8,594 nucleotides of DNA from a virus (taxonomy: Duplodnaviria; Heunggongvirae; Uroviricota; Caudoviricetes), in IMG/VR virus record IMGVR_UViG_2740892431_000003; one strand, written 5' to 3'. Shown here one piece after another: positions 2,292 through 8,277 of the stretch. The position numbers and the translations under genes are program-made. Position 1 is the first letter of the stretch. Each line of letters starts with the position of its first letter. The notes below the pieces were generated by a model. The model saw only the letters and a program-made list of their open reading frames with translations. It did not search any database and had not been told where the DNA came from.

Positions 2292-3314
2292 TTACTCGAA
2301 TTCTGGACGCATATCGTTAAGCGTCATCATGAATTTTTGGTGATATTCATCACCGAGCTTTTCAGCCATGGTGTTAATTTCATTTTCAGCGCGCTTGAAC
2401 ATCGTTTTTGCATCTTCAGCAGATGGATCCAGGCTATTAAGTATCGCGATGATATATTCTCGAGCTTCTTCTCGTTCTGAATCTGAAATTGGCGACAGGT
2501 GTTGACGCTCATCGTCAACTACGGAATATTCACCAGTGATAACAGCTGCGTTATCTTGGCTAAGTCCAGCTTCAGCGCGCTCATCCATAACAACAGCCTT
2601 CTGCATTTCAATAGAAACAGGAAGATATTTGAACAGTCGGCGAATTACTGTTTTTTTAGCCATCTCATCGAAGTGATCAACCCATGGGCCACTGCTACCG
2701 GCTTTGCTCAGTGCACGAACTTTCTCAACGTCTGCCCGGCTCATAACTTCAAATTGGACTCCGCCATCTTTCAGTCGTGCAACGGCGTAAACGTGCGTTA
2801 ATTCTCCGCGGTCACCTGTTTCGCAAGGTAAATGCTCGAGCGTTTCTTCCAGGCCGTATGAGTAGCTGAATTTGTCGTTTGTATGTACGGTACGAGCCGA
2901 GATACTCAGGATCTGCCCAGAGCGGCGGGCAAGGTCAATCATTCCGCGATAGCCGATAATCAGCTGTGCTTCTGTAGATACGGTTTCCCATCTTCCATTT
3001 ACTTTCTGGCGTTTGTCGAACGGTATCAGGTAAGCGTGTCCAAGAGCTCCGCCTGGTTCAAGACCCAATTGGGCACATTGCATAATTGCCCCCAGGAAGC
3101 TGGCTTGGTCGCATGATGCAAGTTTTGGAACCTTTCTGATCTCTGTGGTTGCTATGCGCGCCAGACGGTCTGCTGTCATGTGCTTTGGAAGTGCCAAAGC
3201 CATCTGAGCTTTAATTTTTGGGTCTGCCAGAAGTCCGGCCAGAGTTGTTGGTTTCTCATTATGATGTGCAACTTGGTTACCGGTAGCCGCTGCCTTAAGT
3301 GCATTGATAGACAT
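2292..3314 (-). CDS. recT: RecT-family single-strand annealing protein
   Basis: Strong resemblance to Rac RecT: ...MTADRLARIATTEIRKVPKLASCD...AQLGLEPGGALGHAYLIPF...LIIGYRGMIDLARRSGQI...THVYAVARLKDGGVQFEVMSR...GPWVDHFDEMAKKTVIRRLFKYLPVSIEMQKAV. RBS AGGAGA precedes the ATG. Confidence 0.9.
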   Translation of the reverse strand: MSINALKAAATGNQVAHHNEKPTTLAGLLADPKIKAQMALALPKHMTADRLARIATTEIRKVPKLASCDQASFLGAIMQCAQLGLEPGGALGHAYLIPFDKRQKVNGRWETVSTEAQLIIGYRGMIDLARRSGQILSISARTVHTNDKFSYSYGLEETLEHLPCETGDRGELTHVYAVARLKDGGVQFEVMSRADVEKVRALSKAGSSGPWVDHFDEMAKKTVIRRLFKYLPVSIEMQKAVVMDERAEAGLSQDNAAVITGEYSVVDDERQHLSPISDSEREEAREYIIAILNSLDPSAEDAKTMFKRAENEINTMAEKLGDEYHQKFMMTLNDMRPEFE

Positions 3315-3323
3315 TTTTTCTCC

Positions 3324-4223
3324 TTACTTCATTCTGAAGACGCGTTGTGTCGTTGTTGTTTTGAATTTTTCGAATAACTCAGGGTGTACTGACTGGAATA
3401 GCTTCTGGTCGAATCTGTTGCTGATCTGAGATTTCCATGTGCAGAGCGGCTTTCCGTCCAGGGTCAGGACTGAGTGCTCTTGCATGTACATCTTCAGCTT
3501 CTCTTCTGATATAGCTATTTCTTCTTCCAGTGATTTTCTGCGTGATTTCATGTCTCGTAGATCGTTGAATAGTGCGAGTGCCTTTCCGTCAGCCTCGATA
3601 CTTGTCCCGGCATCTTTCTCAAACATCAGCGATACATCGCTTACGCTGGTAGCTTCCGGCGGGTTAAGATTTTTCACTCGGTCCCAGAAAGCGATTTCTT
3701 TTTCTAAGATCGCCTGGATAGTTTCTTCATCACGCTCAACCCGATAGATTCGGAAGTCGTCGCCACCGATAAGCACACCGAAAACGCATACCTGTTTGTT
3801 TGTAACCATCAACCCGTGCATGGCCTGGGCCGTGTAATGCACAGGAATTGCATCTGTCTGGATTTCTCCCCATTCTTTGGCTTTGAACGGACTAACTGTT
3901 TTGATCTCAATGTTCTCGCCTGACGCTGCTTCTGCATCGATCTCAGCTGCAATAAAATCGTAATCACGGTGGATATAGCGGTTTCCGCGATGAACGATTT
4001 CCATCCCTGTTTCCTCAGAAAGCAGGTCTATTACGTATGGCTCCATACGCTGGCCACGCGTGAAAACTTTCTGCTTGCTTGGGTCTACTGGTTTGACACG
4101 TGGCTGGACCTTATCCAGATAAACCTCAAGCGGGGTGCGCCATGGGCTAATTCCAAGAATCCCTGCAACATCGCTTCCTCCGATGTATTTTGTTCTATCC
4201 ATGATTCCAGCGTTCCGCATCAT
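3324..4223 (-). CDS. YqaJ-like (lambda Exo-like) 5'-3' exonuclease, recombination partner of RecT
   Basis: Sits immediately upstream of recT in the same operon. The N-terminal region (…YIGGSDVAGILGISPWRTPLEVY…, later …YYTAQAMHGLMVTNK…) fits the YqaJ viral recombinase fold. ATGA overlap with the upstream gene's stop; an internal ATG 21 nt downstream is an alternative start. Confidence 0.8.
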   Translation of the reverse strand: MMRNAGIMDRTKYIGGSDVAGILGISPWRTPLEVYLDKVQPRVKPVDPSKQKVFTRGQRMEPYVIDLLSEETGMEIVHRGNRYIHRDYDFIAAEIDAEAASGENIEIKTVSPFKAKEWGEIQTDAIPVHYTAQAMHGLMVTNKQVCVFGVLIGGDDFRIYRVERDEETIQAILEKEIAFWDRVKNLNPPEATSVSDVSLMFEKDAGTSIEADGKALALFNDLRDMKSRRKSLEEEIAISEEKLKMYMQEHSVLTLDGKPLCTWKSQISNRFDQKLFQSVHPELFEKFKTTTTQRVFRMK

Positions 4224-4692: not shown

Positions 4693-4771
4693 GTTACCGT
4701 TGAGGTAATAATTATGCGTATTTGGTTTGATGTCAATAGATATGAGTTAAAAAAATTACCCATTAGGTAAT
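4693..4771 (-). promoter_or_regulatory. Leftward early promoter (pL-like) with two flanking 17-bp palindromic operators (OL)
   Basis: Operators GTTACCgttgaGGTAAT (4693-4709) and ATTACCcattaGGTAAT (4755-4771). On the minus strand a -35 TTGACA (complement of 4731-4736) is followed ~17 bp later by an AT-rich -10 (AATTAT) that overlaps the 4693-4709 operator. Confidence 0.5.
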
Positions 4772-4780
4772 AGTATAGGC

Positions 4781-4805
4781 AATAAAAAAGCCGCCAGAAG
4801 GCGGC
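4781..4805 (-). terminator. Rho-independent terminator downstream of the repressor gene
   Basis: Minus-strand RNA would form GCCGCC-UUCU-GGCGGC followed by UUUUUUAUU (plus strand 4781-4805 reads aataaaaaaGCCGCCagaaGGCGGC). Confidence 0.7.
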
Positions 4806-4827
4806 TTACTTACTGAAAAGTATGATT

Positions 4828-5412
4828 TTATTGTTTGTTTTTTTCGTTCTGGTTGATGACAAATTCAATGTAACTTTCGATCTTTGCTTTCTCGGTTTCG
4901 GGTAACAATGCGTAGCGCGAGCGGTCATAGTTGATGGTCGCAGGGTCGTGCGGGTGAATCAGTAATTCATAGCCGTGACGCCCGAATGCGGATGCAACAT
5001 TCTCCAGGGTGGAAATGGAAACGCTGACCTCATTGTTTAACAGGCGACTGATTGTCACCTGGGCGACGCCGGATGCGCGGTGAAGTTTTCCCTGCGTTGA
5101 AAGGTCGCGGCTTTCGCTCATCCAGCGTTCCAGGTTGTGAGCCGCCAGCTGACCAATGTCGCTTGGGCCGACAGGCTGAAAACCTTCCTGAGAAAGCGAG
5201 CGATCGATATCAAGCCAGTTACGGGGTTTATTGGCGGCAGCTTCAATTTTTCGTGCAACCTGGTCGCCGATAACCTTCTTGCCAAGAGCCCAGCGGTTTA
5301 CCAGATTTGCCTGAGTTCCAAGTTTTTCTGCCATCCGCGTCTGAACACCATTGAATTCACGGTCGATCAAGTCGTTGAGATTTTGCCTGCGGACGTCCTG
5401 GATACTTTTCAT
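4828..5412 (-). CDS. Prophage repressor (CI-like role) with two tandem XRE-type HTH domains and no S24 peptidase domain
   Basis: First HTH roughly …VQTRMAEKLGTQANLVNRWALGKKVIGDQVARKIEAAANKPRNWLD; second roughly …LHRASGVAQVTISRLLNNEVSVSISTLENVASAFG. Placed between the divergent operator-bearing promoters, followed by its own terminator. The C-terminus has no Ser/Lys peptidase motifs. Confidence 0.7.
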   Translation of the reverse strand: MKSIQDVRRQNLNDLIDREFNGVQTRMAEKLGTQANLVNRWALGKKVIGDQVARKIEAAANKPRNWLDIDRSLSQEGFQPVGPSDIGQLAAHNLERWMSESRDLSTQGKLHRASGVAQVTISRLLNNEVSVSISTLENVASAFGRHGYELLIHPHDPATINYDRSRYALLPETEKAKIESYIEFVINQNEKNKQ

Positions 5413-5466
5413 TTTCTGGAAAATCGCCTCATATATGAATCAGTAGATGATTCAATTTAAAGCAAT

Positions 5467-5531
5467 ATTACCCAACAGGTAAATGCACCTCATAGGTAAC
5501 TATCCTTGATTTTTGTTACCTTATGGGTGAA
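5467..5531. promoter_or_regulatory. Immunity-region operators (OR) in the divergent promoter region between the repressor and the Cro-like gene
   Basis: ATTACCcaacaGGTAAA (5467-5483), abutting weaker site TGCACCtcataGGTAAC (5484-5500), and GTTACCttatgGGTGAA (5515-5531). A candidate -35 TTGATT (5505-5510) for the rightward promoter sits just upstream of the third site. Confidence 0.55.
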
Positions 5532-5566
5532 TATTTATTATCTGAAATAAATATCAGGCAATAGCT

Positions 5567-5797
5567 ATGAGCGATAACGGACATTTCGATTTCAAAAAGC
5601 ACTGGCTTGCACTTACTCCGGATGAGCGTGAAGCCTTCGCACAGGAAGCCGGAACGACGAGTCACTATATCCAGACTCACTTAACAGGTAAGCGCAAAAT
5701 GCCAGGTAAGGTATTGATGAATGGGCTTTTTAAAGCCTGTAAAACAAGACAATGGCTGCGCTCAAAAGCAGAACTGGCATACTTCTTCTACTCATGA
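5567..5797 (+). CDS. Cro-like small DNA-binding regulator (putative), first rightward gene
   Basis: 76 aa, divergent from the repressor, immediately downstream of the operator cluster and followed by a terminator. The call is positional plus a weak HTH-like segment (LTPDEREAFAQEAGTTSHYIQTHLTGKR); the family assignment is tentative. Confidence 0.5.
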   Translation: MSDNGHFDFKKHWLALTPDEREAFAQEAGTTSHYIQTHLTGKRKMPGKVLMNGLFKACKTRQWLRSKAELAYFFYS

Positions 5798-5819
5798 TAT
5801 CCAGCTACAACCCTCTGTA

Positions 5820-5844
5820 GACCGCCACCCGGCGGTCTTTTCAT
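5820..5844 (+). terminator. Rho-independent terminator after the Cro-like gene (tR1-like position)
   Basis: GACCGCC-accc-GGCGGTC stem-loop (5820-5837) followed by TTTTCAT. Confidence 0.55.
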
Positions 5845-5947
5845 ATCTATTCGTACCTCAAAGGTAATAAAAAACCAAATCTGGTTGATCTTTTTTTTGT
5901 GTCAGCACAAAATGACCGTAACCCCAATACTAATAGCAGGGCTTACC

Positions 5948-6148
5948 ATGGAAATCATTACACGTATTGATGCCGCAAAGCGCGGACTTAAACGCTACTA
6001 CACCGGAAAACCATGTAAGCATGGACATGACAGTGAACGCTGGGTTTACAACGGACACTGTGTTGAGTGCACCATGGAATCAAACCGTCGCATCAGGGCA
6101 GAGATTAAGCAGATCATGATTAATTCCTCCCCACAACACTCAAGCTGA
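5948..6148 (+). CDS. small putative zinc-binding protein (67 aa) at the cII-equivalent position
   Basis: MEIITRIDAAKRGLKRYYTGKPCKHGHDSERWVYNGHCVECTMESNRRIRAEIKQIMINSSPQHSS carries a C-x-H-x-H … H-C-x2-C cluster. I chose the ATG at 5948 over the upstream ATG at 5912; neither has a strong RBS. Confidence 0.45.
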   Translation: MEIITRIDAAKRGLKRYYTGKPCKHGHDSERWVYNGHCVECTMESNRRIRAEIKQIMINSSPQHSS

Positions 6149-6163
6149 TAGCGGAGATTAATC

Positions 6164-6997
6164 ATGAGCAGACATGCAACAGATTGGGCCTGGGAGACAG
6201 ATCCAGGTAGCTCATCATTAAAGCTCATACTGCTCTCGATGGCTGACAGAGCCGATGAATATAACCTCTGCTACCCCAGCATAGAACGCCTCGTTAAAGA
6301 CACTTGCCTGAATAAAAAAACCGTGCAGGCCGGGCTTATATCGCTCATGAAAATGGGGCTTATTTCAGATACCGGAGAGAGAAAGGGAGCGACAAAAAGA
6401 GTGCGGGTTTTCTCTCTTAATATAACCAAAAACGGGAACATTAAAGGCAACCGGGAGGGGGGCAATGAACCCGAAAACGGTAATGTTACCGAAAACGGGA
6501 ATATACCCAAAAACGGGATGTTGAATGATCCCAAAAACGGGATGTTGAATGATCCCAAAAACGGGATCCAGAACCAGTCATATAACCAGTCATTTAACCA
6601 AGAGAGGGAGAGCAGGACAAAAACCGGGGATTCTGTTCCTCATGACCCCGGCGCAAACAACGCCGTGATGAATAACTTTGTTCCTCCTGGTGGGCCAGGG
6701 CAATTAGGTAAATTTGTCATGCATGAACAATGGCAGCCATCAGATGACTTTCTTCGGAAAAGCTCATTGCAGGGAATCTACCTGGACAGTCTGCCAACGG
6801 CACAGGAACTTGCAGAGTTCAGAATTTACTGGATGGCTGAGGGTAAGGCATACCATCAGGCACAGTGGGAGCAGAAGCTGGCAAGGCGCATCCAGTTCTG
6901 TAGACAGAAATCAGGTGAAGTCAGAAAGAGCCTTGACTGGCATAACACTGACTGGATAGATGAGGTGTGGGATGAAATCAACTCCAGAACTTCTTAA
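6164..6997 (+). CDS. Replication initiation protein (lambda O-like; N-terminal winged-helix DNA-binding domain, low-complexity iteron-encoded linker)
   Basis: N-terminus MSRHATDWAWETDPGSSSLKLILLSMADRADEYNLCYPSIERLVKDTCLNKKTVQAGLISLMKMGLISD is typical of phage replication-initiator HTH domains. It sits directly upstream of, and overlaps, the P-like gene and contains the iteron array. RBS GGAG precedes the ATG. Confidence 0.7.
   Translation: MSRHATDWAWETDPGSSSLKLILLSMADRADEYNLCYPSIERLVKDTCLNKKTVQAGLISLMKMGLISDTGERKGATKRVRVFSLNITKNGNIKGNREGGNEPENGNVTENGNIPKNGMLNDPKNGMLNDPKNGIQNQSYNQSFNQERESRTKTGDSVPHDPGANNAVMNNFVPPGGPGQLGKFVMHEQWQPSDDFLRKSSLQGIYLDSLPTAQELAEFRIYWMAEGKAYHQAQWEQKLARRIQFCRQKSGEVRKSLDWHNTDWIDEVWDEINSRTS
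6425..6571. repeat. Iteron array (putative phage origin of replication) embedded in the O-like gene
   Basis: At least six direct repeats with core (A)CC(C)(A/G)AAAACGG(G/T)A starting near 6426, 6470, 6488, 6506, 6530 and 6554, at 18-24 bp spacing. This includes a perfect 24-bp tandem duplication (6506-6529 and 6530-6553). A second short direct repeat AACCAGTCAT(A/T)T follows at 6572-6600. Confidence 0.6.
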
Positions 6998-7754
6998 TGA
7001 GTACGATCGCTTTCGTGGTGGGCATGACCACTCGACGGCGGTTGCTTCTGCTGACGATGAAAGGGCAAAGAAGGAGCAGGTTGCAAGAATTTTCAACGAA
7101 ATGTTTGTCCAGTTACAGGCTGCATTTCCAGGCAGCATCGCTGCTATCAGCGAGCAAGGAAAGCTAAACGAATTTCGAAAACAATGGATGCTTGCGTTTC
7201 TGGAGAATGGGATCACAACAATGGAACAGGTTAACGCTGGTATGCGCCACGCCCGCGCCAGTGAATCTCCGTTCTGGCCGTCGCCTGGGCAATTCATCAA
7301 GTGGTGCAAAGACAGCAAGATGGTTCTTGGCGTCACCATTGACGATGTGATGGCGGAGTTTCACCGGTACAGCAAGGAAAAAAGTTTATATCCTGGTGGT
7401 CCCGAAAGATTCCCGTGGCGACATCCGGTTATGTACTGGGTCGTATGTGATACCCGCCGTGCAATGTATCAGCGCCAGCTTAGCGAGATTGAGGTTGAGA
7501 AACACGCGCGCAGGCTGCTCGATGATTGGGCGAAAAAGGTGGCTTCCGGACAGCAGATACCCGATCCGGTGATCAGCATACAGGCAAAGCCAGAACCCAT
7601 GAGTACACCTCCGGACACAGGGAGAGACGTTTACCATCCACCAGGGCGAAGTTTCGGGTGCATGCCTAACGCCGCCACCCTTGGGGGAATAACACCGGCG
7701 CAGTGGCTGATGGAGGAATACAGGCGGGGAAAGGCGGCAGGATTTATCAAGTAA
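6972..7754 (+). CDS. Replication protein P-like (DnaB helicase loader, lambda P family)
   Basis: …IFNEMFVQLQAAFPGSIAAI…FRKQWMLAFLENGITTMEQVNAGMRHARASESPFWPSPGQFIKWCKD… closely parallels lambda P as I recall it (ITTMEQVNAGMR, PSPGQF). I chose the ATG at 6972 with RBS GAGGTG upstream; it overlaps the O-like 3' end as in lambda. Confidence 0.85.
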   Translation: MKSTPELLNEYDRFRGGHDHSTAVASADDERAKKEQVARIFNEMFVQLQAAFPGSIAAISEQGKLNEFRKQWMLAFLENGITTMEQVNAGMRHARASESPFWPSPGQFIKWCKDSKMVLGVTIDDVMAEFHRYSKEKSLYPGGPERFPWRHPVMYWVVCDTRRAMYQRQLSEIEVEKHARRLLDDWAKKVASGQQIPDPVISIQAKPEPMSTPPDTGRDVYHPPGRSFGCMPNAATLGGITPAQWLMEEYRRGKAAGFIK

Positions 7755-7790: not shown

Positions 7791-7869
7791 ATTACCTACT
7801 GGGTAATAAAATATTCTAAAATCTATTGATTTAGTGTCTTATGTGGTTTTTAATTACCTCAGGGGTAAA
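7791..7869 (+). promoter_or_regulatory. Third operator-flanked sigma70-like promoter upstream of the DUF1064-like gene
   Basis: Operators ATTACCtactgGGTAAT (7791-7807) and ATTACCtcaggGGTAAA (7853-7869) bracket -35 TTGATT (7826-7831), a 17-bp spacer and -10 TTTAAT (7849-7854). The downstream operator overlaps the -10 and start region; RBS AGGGG precedes ATG 7872. Confidence 0.5.
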
Positions 7870-7871
7870 TC

Positions 7872-8216
7872 ATGAGAAAACAGATACAGGCTCTTGGTCG
7901 ACTCAAAACAGGCCAGATGAACAAAACAGAATCTGCGTATTGCCAGCACCTTGAGCAGCGTAAACGTGCAGGGGAAATCGCCTGGTATCGGTTCGAGGGT
8001 ATCAAGCTGCGGTTAGCTGATAACACGTTTTATACGCCAGATTTCGCTGTGATGCTCGCCACCGGCGAGATGGAACTGCACGAAGTGAAAGGTTTCTGGA
8101 CCGACGACGCCAGGGTGAAAACCAAAGTCGCCGCAGATCAGTATCCGTTCCGAATCATCGGGGTAACGGTTAAACCAAAGAAAGCAGGTGGCGGCTGGAA
8201 CATCGAAGAGTTCTGA
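7872..8216 (+). CDS. DUF1064-like phage protein with a PD-(D/E)xK nuclease-type motif (putative endonuclease/resolvase-like)
   Basis: …ESAYCQHLEQRKRAGEIAWYRFEGIKLRLADNTFYTPDFAVMLATGEMELHEVKGFW…QYPF resembles the conserved core of small phage DUF1064 proteins (D…E.K signature) as I recall them; not verified by search. Confidence 0.5.
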   Translation: MRKQIQALGRLKTGQMNKTESAYCQHLEQRKRAGEIAWYRFEGIKLRLADNTFYTPDFAVMLATGEMELHEVKGFWTDDARVKTKVAADQYPFRIIGVTVKPKKAGGGWNIEEF

Positions 8217-8277
8217 ATCGACGATCTTTTTAGTTATCAATGTAATCAATAAGTTATGTGGATAAGCGAGGGTAAAG

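Follow-up and report, generated by a model that had tools for sequence, protein, structure and literature searches.

How a phage repressor that appears unable to cleave itself is removed from its operators after DNA damage is the question raised by a gene lying at positions 4828-5412 of an 8,594-nucleotide stretch of viral DNA, which is referred to here as the window. From the sequence of this gene, the original prediction had described a repressor with tandem XRE-type helix-turn-helix (HTH) domains and no autocleavage domain. It had proposed, after the precedent of the Salmonella Gifsy prophages, that the protein is inactivated by a small antirepressor under LexA control. The gene product (Rep) is very probably a non-cleavable immunity repressor of the phiV10/epsilon15 type, belonging to the family of the SPC32H Rep and inactivated by a LexA-controlled antirepressor of 85 amino acids (Ant) that is encoded outside the window. 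The repressor system as such is already known, from the notes carried by the phiV10 GenBank record since its deposit, from the genetics and structures of the SPC32H proteins and from overexpression in phage vB_EcoP_ZX5 (ZX5). The discovery value is thus small: an identical protein stands in the databases as the phiV10 repressor, in a record that mentions the two HTH motifs, the overexpression experiment has been done in ZX5, and the mechanism and crystal structures of the prototype have been published. The practical value lies in correct annotation of the gene as an antirepressor-controlled, non-cleavable repressor, whose partner gene is to be sought beside the tailspike gene and not in the early region.

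The repressor gene and its prophage

The open reading frame was confirmed on the minus strand (4828..5412), with an ATG start and a product of 194 amino acids. This product is 100% identical to p40 of phiV10, ORF21 of ZX5, the PAS61 protein and other annotated repressors, so that the gene itself shows no difference from its phiV10 and ZX5 counterparts, and it matches PHROG families of transcriptional regulators and repressors. The phiV10 record already mentions 'two helix-turn-helix motifs' and a similarity to the epsilon15 repressor. In turn, the epsilon15 record, in which the family member is gp38, annotates repressor-binding sites and cites the HHpred match 5d50_A for the repressor. These identities, together with full-length homology to the Rep of SPC32H, support the reading that the gene encodes the immunity repressor. 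Overexpression of ORF21 in ZX5, that is, of the same protein as the Rep of the window, has been shown to bring free phage to zero and to decrease the transcripts of endolysin by 99.99% and those of holin by 99.97% (Li et al., 2022; PMC9782041).

The 1.2 kb around rep share 96.5-99.7% identity with 16 records of E. coli phages and, in complete E. coli genomes, the module carrying rep belongs to a prophage inserted beside guaA. The prophage to which the window belongs is of the phiV10/epsilon15-like (Uetakevirus) kind, from E. coli or a close relative, and the window represents its early/immunity region. To the left of rep lies a leftward operon with genes for DUF1382, MT-A70 methylase, PerC-like, AlpA-like, RecT and YqaJ-exonuclease proteins plus two small ORFs. 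Directly after rep, on the same minus strand, there is an intrinsic terminator (4788..4807) in which a T run comes after a GC-rich stem of 8 bp, and a terminator is annotated at the equivalent position of the phiV10 record. Divergent from rep is a cro-like gene of 76 codons (5567..5797, plus strand), whose product matches phrog_35, 'transcriptional repressor', with an E value of 5.6e-13. Further to the right are a small Zn-ribbon-like ORF and the O-like (DnaT/HTH_36) and lambda-P-like replication genes. An Rfam scan of the window gave no match.

Two side observations concern the genes that flank this region. In the window, RecT (2292-3314) and the YqaJ-type exonuclease (3324-4223) are encoded by separate genes, whereas the phiV10 record has a single fused RecE/RecT-like gene (p37) in their place; the recombination module is a mosaic difference between the window and phiV10. 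The other observation is the presence of tandem repeats within the O/DnaT-like gene, namely an 18-bp unit repeated 2.8 times (6469-6518) and a perfect 24-bp unit repeated 2.6 times (6506-6567), which encode a repeated NGMLNDPK peptide. The repeats at 6469-6567 most likely represent iterons of the origin, like those in lambda O.

Another difference from phiV10 is found at the left end of the window, where about 1-438 belongs to the end of an IS2-like (IS3-family) element, which is on the minus strand and whose orfA starts here and reads leftward. This element breaks a phiV10-type integrase gene after about nucleotide 942 of 1251 (window position 438), and the last 103 codons of the gene persist as a remnant at 439-747. 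Since the integrase is cut, the prophage is probably unable to excise, and the element represented by the window may be degenerate. It is conceivable, if somewhat doubtful, that the prophage is a trapped remnant in which Rep chiefly confers immunity to superinfection and no longer takes part in a functioning induction switch, a reading compatible with the antirepressor model preferred here. It is favored by the interruption of the integrase gene and by the IS2/integrase junction, which is absent from the sequenced complete E. coli genomes and has no exact match in the species-representative genomes, a distribution that would suit an IS-rich source of the Shigella kind. Against it, rep, the operators and cro are intact, as are the O/P replication genes and the recombination genes, with 98-99% identity to their equivalents in functional phages, and the IS insertion may be recent. 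Under the antirepressor model, the source prophage of the window would still carry ant.

Operators and the proposed switch

A 15-bp palindrome, TTACC-N5-GGTAA, was scanned across the window as the operator motif. Seven sites with at most one mismatch were found, compared with 0.18 expected, a number reached in none of 200 shuffles, and all seven are intergenic. In total, eight operator-type sites, five of them exact, are present at three promoter regions and, to judge from the sequence, Rep most likely binds them. At the left, two perfect sites 62 bp apart (4694-4708, TTACCGTTGAGGTAA; 4756-4770, TTACCCATTAGGTAA) flank a strong leftward promoter recovered by the promoter scan, TTGACA-17-AATTAT, with TTGACA at 4736-4731 and AATTAT at 4713-4708. 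The spacer between rep and the cro-like gene contains a perfect site (5468-5482), a site with two mismatches (5485-5499) and a site with one mismatch (5516-5530), the last of which overlaps the -35 element of a rightward promoter, TTGTTA-17-TATTAT (5513-5541). For rep itself, on the minus strand, only weak promoter hexamers could be read by eye in 5413-5500. The third pair, again of two perfect sites separated by 62 bp (7792-7806; 7854-7868), has the geometry of the left pair; between its sites a candidate promoter for the gene starting at 7872, TTGATT-17-TTTAAT (7826-7854), was read by eye. Each of the 62-bp pairs would be bridged by one Rep tetramer with two DNA-binding pairs. Immediately behind the cro-like gene there is also an intrinsic terminator (5819-5838) and beyond it, ahead of the replication genes, an operator-like site with one mismatch (5853-5867). 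Because of these two elements, transcription of the replication genes would depend on read-through or on a promoter of their own under the control of Rep.

The same operator motif and the same 62-bp pairs have been found in phiV10 and in SPC32H, and the rep/cro spacer of SPC32H holds two operator sites 17 bp apart. In the epsilon15 GenBank record, 'repressor' binding sites of 16 or 17 bp are annotated, three of them at the left and one each ahead of the third unit and of gp19, which is the Ant homologue; the annotated left sites have the same layout as the window between 4694 and 4770. As a separate observation, the relatives carry more operator motifs ahead of the terminase and head operons. 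Rep may thus touch most transcription units of the phage and not just the early ones.

The switch proposed for this prophage would work as follows. The N-terminal HTH of Rep would bind the operator pairs at the leftward promoter and ahead of the unit that begins at 7872, as well as the cluster between rep and cro, and with these three regions occupied the three lytic units would be kept silent. Rep would have no self-cleavage, and induction would go through Ant, encoded beside the tailspike gene. Upon DNA damage, cleavage of LexA would allow the synthesis of Ant, which would bind Rep and cause it to leave the DNA. The C-terminal tail of Rep would, by homology, provide both tetramer formation and the docking site for Ant.

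Antirepressors of the related phages

The prototype of this switch is the Rep/Ant pair of SPC32H, a Salmonella temperate phage, for which two structures are available in the PDB, 5D4Z ('Repressor') and 5D50 ('Rep-Ant complex'). By BLASTP, the Rep of the window and that of SPC32H are 42% identical end to end, and in a phmmer search against PDB sequences residues 1-190 of Rep were aligned to 2-197 of 5D50_A (E = 4e-42). Both proteins have the same three-module layout; in both phages rep has the recombination operon on one side and the cro-like gene on the other, and the TTACC-N5-GGTAA motif and the 62-bp operator pairs are common to the two. Since Rep is a full-length homologue of SPC32H Rep, the antirepressor model is supported through a direct homologue and not by analogy with Gifsy. 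The original prediction was right in the logic that it took from the Gifsy prophages: the pairs of Gifsy-1/2/3 and Fels-2 (Lemire et al., 2011; PMC3121763), like Tum of coliphage 186, also combine an uncleavable repressor with a small LexA-repressed inactivator. However, these systems belong to another phage type with another position of ant, and no sequence relationship with Rep was detected: a tblastn search with Rep (E ≤ 1e-5) of a phage collection that includes Gifsy-1 gave no Gifsy match. Gifsy is therefore an analogy and not a relative, and SPC32H Rep/Ant is the closer precedent.

In the SPC32H record both rep and ant are annotated, and ant encodes 86 amino acids and is divergent from the tailspike gene. 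Its equivalents in the relatives of the window have been annotated as 'hypothetical protein', as is the case of p24 of phiV10, of the ZX5 protein and of the one encoded by the closest E. coli prophage, that of strain fS10a. Identity to SPC32H Ant is 88% for phiV10 p24 and 89% for the fS10a protein, and ant adjoins the tailspike gene in every related complete phage checked. Relatives with an identical Rep thus share with SPC32H an Ant of 88-89% identity, a LexA box and the tailspike neighbor. Among the records of the phage collection, 36 hold a full-length Rep homologue and 35 of them also have Ant; conversely, all 35 records with Ant hold Rep. PP488543.1 is the one phage record with an identical Rep in which Ant was not found.

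The LexA box lies directly upstream of ant and reads TACTGTGTATTTATACAGTT in phiV10 and TACTGTATAAATATACAGTT in ZX5 and fS10a. In phiV10, ZX5, fS10a, epsilon15, Tyrion and BUCT554 the ant boxes (CTGT-N8-ACAG) match 17-18 of the 20 consensus positions; the box stands at the same distance from ant in epsilon15, Tyrion and BUCT554, and a degenerate copy is present in a Klebsiella relative. SPC32H and its sister isolate SPC32N differ by two bases in 38,689. One of the differences, at 19960, changes the CTGT of the ant LexA box to CTTT, and the other, at 20147, falls in the tailspike gene. The 2013 paper on SPC32H reportedly traced a phenotypic difference to the LexA control of ant, and the change in the box fits that result. 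The primary work on SPC32H Rep and Ant is that of Kim and Ryu in 2013 (J Virol) and of Kim et al. in 2016 (PNAS). As a side observation, an operator or operator-like motif precedes the LexA box by about 54 bp, within the spacer between ant and the tailspike gene, in every relative examined. It lies at 20881-20895 in phiV10 (record L001), where the copy has one mismatch (TTACCTTTCAGGTGA), at 8205-8219 in record L004 and at 301-315 in record L010.

In the window itself, no exact CTGT-N8-ACAG box was found, and the three hits with one mismatch, against 2.86 expected, are all inside coding ORFs, in agreement with the earlier reading that its intergenic regions carry no LexA box. Ant-like sequence is likewise absent from the 8.6-kb window (tblastn, E ≤ 10) and, in the fS10a prophage, from the 20 kb to the right of the counterpart of the window, which include the rest of the early-right operon, the terminase and the head genes (tblastn, E ≤ 10). 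The small LexA-controlled antirepressor is therefore most likely encoded elsewhere, as had been supposed, and the relatives with an identical Rep, in which ant and a LexA box occur together, point to the tailspike region. The more specific suggestion, that the antirepressor is located in the unit from 7872 onward, did not hold, as this unit opens with a DUF1064/resolvase-like gene (7872..8216, plus strand; Pfam DUF1064, E = 3.4e-7; phrog_190, E = 6e-43); for sequences related to SPC32H Ant this location is largely refuted.

The two switches also differ. Rep is far more diverged than Ant (42% versus 88% identity), and the identity of Rep to its SPC32H counterpart is 52% in the DNA-binding domain, 32% in the middle dimerization domain (MDD) and 43% in the C-terminal domain that binds Ant (CAD). 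With identities of this order, sensitivity to Ant is extrapolated from SPC32H, and Ant would be expected to bind the Rep of the window by analogy with the solved pair. In a wider comparison, Ant is 84-89% identical between the E. coli and Salmonella Uetakeviruses, their Reps are 42% identical, and the outer operator half-sites are the same in both groups despite that divergence of Rep. This combination makes cross-induction between these phages a possibility.

Another difference is that the E. coli phages add an Ant domain fused to BRO-N, placed behind isrK and C4 RNAs. In ZX5, ORF4 encodes a BRO-N protein of about 230-231 amino acids, distinct from the small Ant that this phage also carries. 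Its C-terminal 75 residues (149-223) align with SPC32H Ant at 40% identity (E = 5e-20), and ORF4 is thus a fusion of BRO-N with an Ant domain. In relatives with an identical Rep this C-terminus is 40-42% identical to SPC32H Ant, and the protein is encoded in the fS10a prophage as well. The isrK and C4 antisense RNA genes were detected upstream of the BRO-N::Ant gene in ZX5, phiV10 and fS10a (Rfam, 75-79 bits), with an operator motif upstream of isrK in the relatives. The whole module spans 1078-2054 in ZX5 (record L005), 6032-7006 in record L004 and 19551-20511 in phiV10 (L001), and it is absent from SPC32H. Overexpression of ORF4, tested as the 'anti-repressor' of ZX5, has been shown to lower lysogens from 10^9 to 10^6, about 1000-fold, and in the same work the small Ant with the LexA box was left annotated as hypothetical (PMC9782041).

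It is therefore worth considering that, in the subgroup of phiV10, the BRO-N::Ant protein could be the main or an additional inactivator of Rep, and not the small Ant alone. This would be compatible with the switch proposed here, and we regard it as possible but unlikely. The likeness of its C-terminus to SPC32H Ant in ZX5 and fS10a, the effect of ORF4 on lysogens, the two RNAs missing from SPC32H and the operator motif upstream of isrK would all be in line with such a role. On the other hand, the gene appears to be split into p23 and p22 in phiV10, and all these phages also conserve the small Ant together with its LexA box. Tentatively, the two proteins may form a two-tier circuit acting on one Rep. 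The LexA-gated 85-aa Ant would act first. The gene for BRO-N::Ant stands behind a Rep operator and the isrK and C4 antisense RNAs, and its release would have to wait until Rep begins to fail, which would make it a feed-forward lock on induction. Given the 84-89% conservation of Ant next to Reps of 42% identity, cross-induction of heteroimmune Uetakevirus prophages by Ant is also conceivable, in the manner of the Gifsy antirepressors. The second antirepressor module, which lies outside the window, is the sole mildly new point of this analysis.

Domain make-up of the repressor

The tandem HTH architecture of the original prediction was confirmed. When the C-terminal half was searched alone, Pfam gave a match to HTH_3 at residues 106-147 (25.7 bits; cut-off, 23 bits); a weaker match of the HTH_3/YdaS type at residues 21-67 scored 16 bits, below the Pfam cut-off. 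Sub-threshold NCBIfam matches to RstR, HigA and TreR reflect the generic HTH and were set aside. An AlphaFold model of Rep, built on an alignment of 33 homologues (mean pLDDT 75), is wholly helical and has no strands, with helices over residues 4-59, a disordered linker at 60-84 and helices again over 85-193. In a Foldseek search of this model against the PDB, SPC32H Rep (5D50/5D4Z) fills the top 12 matches and is followed by XRE-type HTH proteins (NHTF, SinR and the DNA-binding domain of P22 C2).

By comparison with SPC32H, Rep is predicted to have three modules and not two: a DNA-binding HTH, an HTH-shaped dimerization domain, and a tail for tetramerization and antirepressor docking. The first comprises codons 1-65 (5218..5412, minus strand), with helices at residues 4-19, 24-31, 35-43 and 50-59. 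Its putative recognition helix is NLVNRW, and N36, R40 and W41 are invariant across the 33 homologues. The second, HTH_3-like, comprises codons 85-152 (4957..5160, minus strand) and is the counterpart of the MDD of SPC32H Rep. Residues 89-190 align to 5D4Z, which contains residues 92-198 of the SPC32H protein (phmmer, E = 4e-20), and Foldseek superposes the second HTH-like domain on 5D4Z with a TM-score of 0.7-0.77 on the target. The third, codons 153-194 (4831..4956, minus strand), is a tail of about 40 residues in which Y162, L170 and F184 are invariant across homologues, and it is the counterpart of the tetramerization/Ant-binding domain (CAD, 'TetDloop') of SPC32H Rep. Two later papers describe for SPC32H Rep an N-terminal DNA-binding domain, the MDD, and a C-terminal tetramerization domain, the CAD, which also binds Ant (PMC9986798, citing Kim et al., 2016; PMC9638917). 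According to the same accounts, the DNA-binding form of this repressor is a tetramer, which is broken when an Ant tetramer binds two dimers of Rep (PMC9986798, PMC9638917). The second HTH-like domain of Rep, aligning with the MDD, is thus a counterpart for dimerization and not a second reader of DNA, so that of the tandem HTH proposal the two HTH-type matches stand, while the function implied for the second does not and the third module had been missed.

The combination of two DNA-binding HTH domains with a Gifsy-type antirepressor encoded in the unit at 7872 is very unlikely. Two HTH_3-type matches are indeed present, and the unit is preceded by two perfect operator sites. Nevertheless, the unit opens with the DUF1064/resolvase-like gene, Ant-like sequence and a LexA box are both missing there, with Ant-like sequence also missing at E ≤ 10 from the 20 kb that follow in the fS10a prophage, the second HTH-like domain serves for dimerization in the solved homologue, and the Gifsy-1 record is not matched by Rep.

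By contrast, the prediction that Rep has no autocleavage domain was upheld. The S24 peptidase family (PF00717) was absent from Rep in a Pfam search even at E ≤ 1, no peptidase appears among the Foldseek PDB matches of the model, and PF00717 is listed for none of 86 clusters of Rep homologues in a large protein collection, in which the non-truncated clusters are about 194 amino acids long and come from Enterobacteriaceae. The sequence of Rep contains no AG, no CG and no Cys. The S24 peptidase has a beta fold. A cryptic self-cleaving repressor, whose C-terminal part would be an unrecognised RecA-stimulated protease on the general precedent of lambda CI and LexA, its one point of support, is extremely improbable given the all-helical model, the lack of an S24 match by sequence or by fold, the missing AG/CG site and the alignment with the non-peptidase SPC32H Rep over residues 1-190 of 194, which leaves no room for an additional domain. 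Compared with lambda CI, P22 C2 and LexA, Rep differs in having neither the S24 domain nor the cleavage site and in its all-helical fold, but it shares with them the N-terminal XRE-type HTH, the divergent arrangement of rep and cro, and the use of multiple operators.
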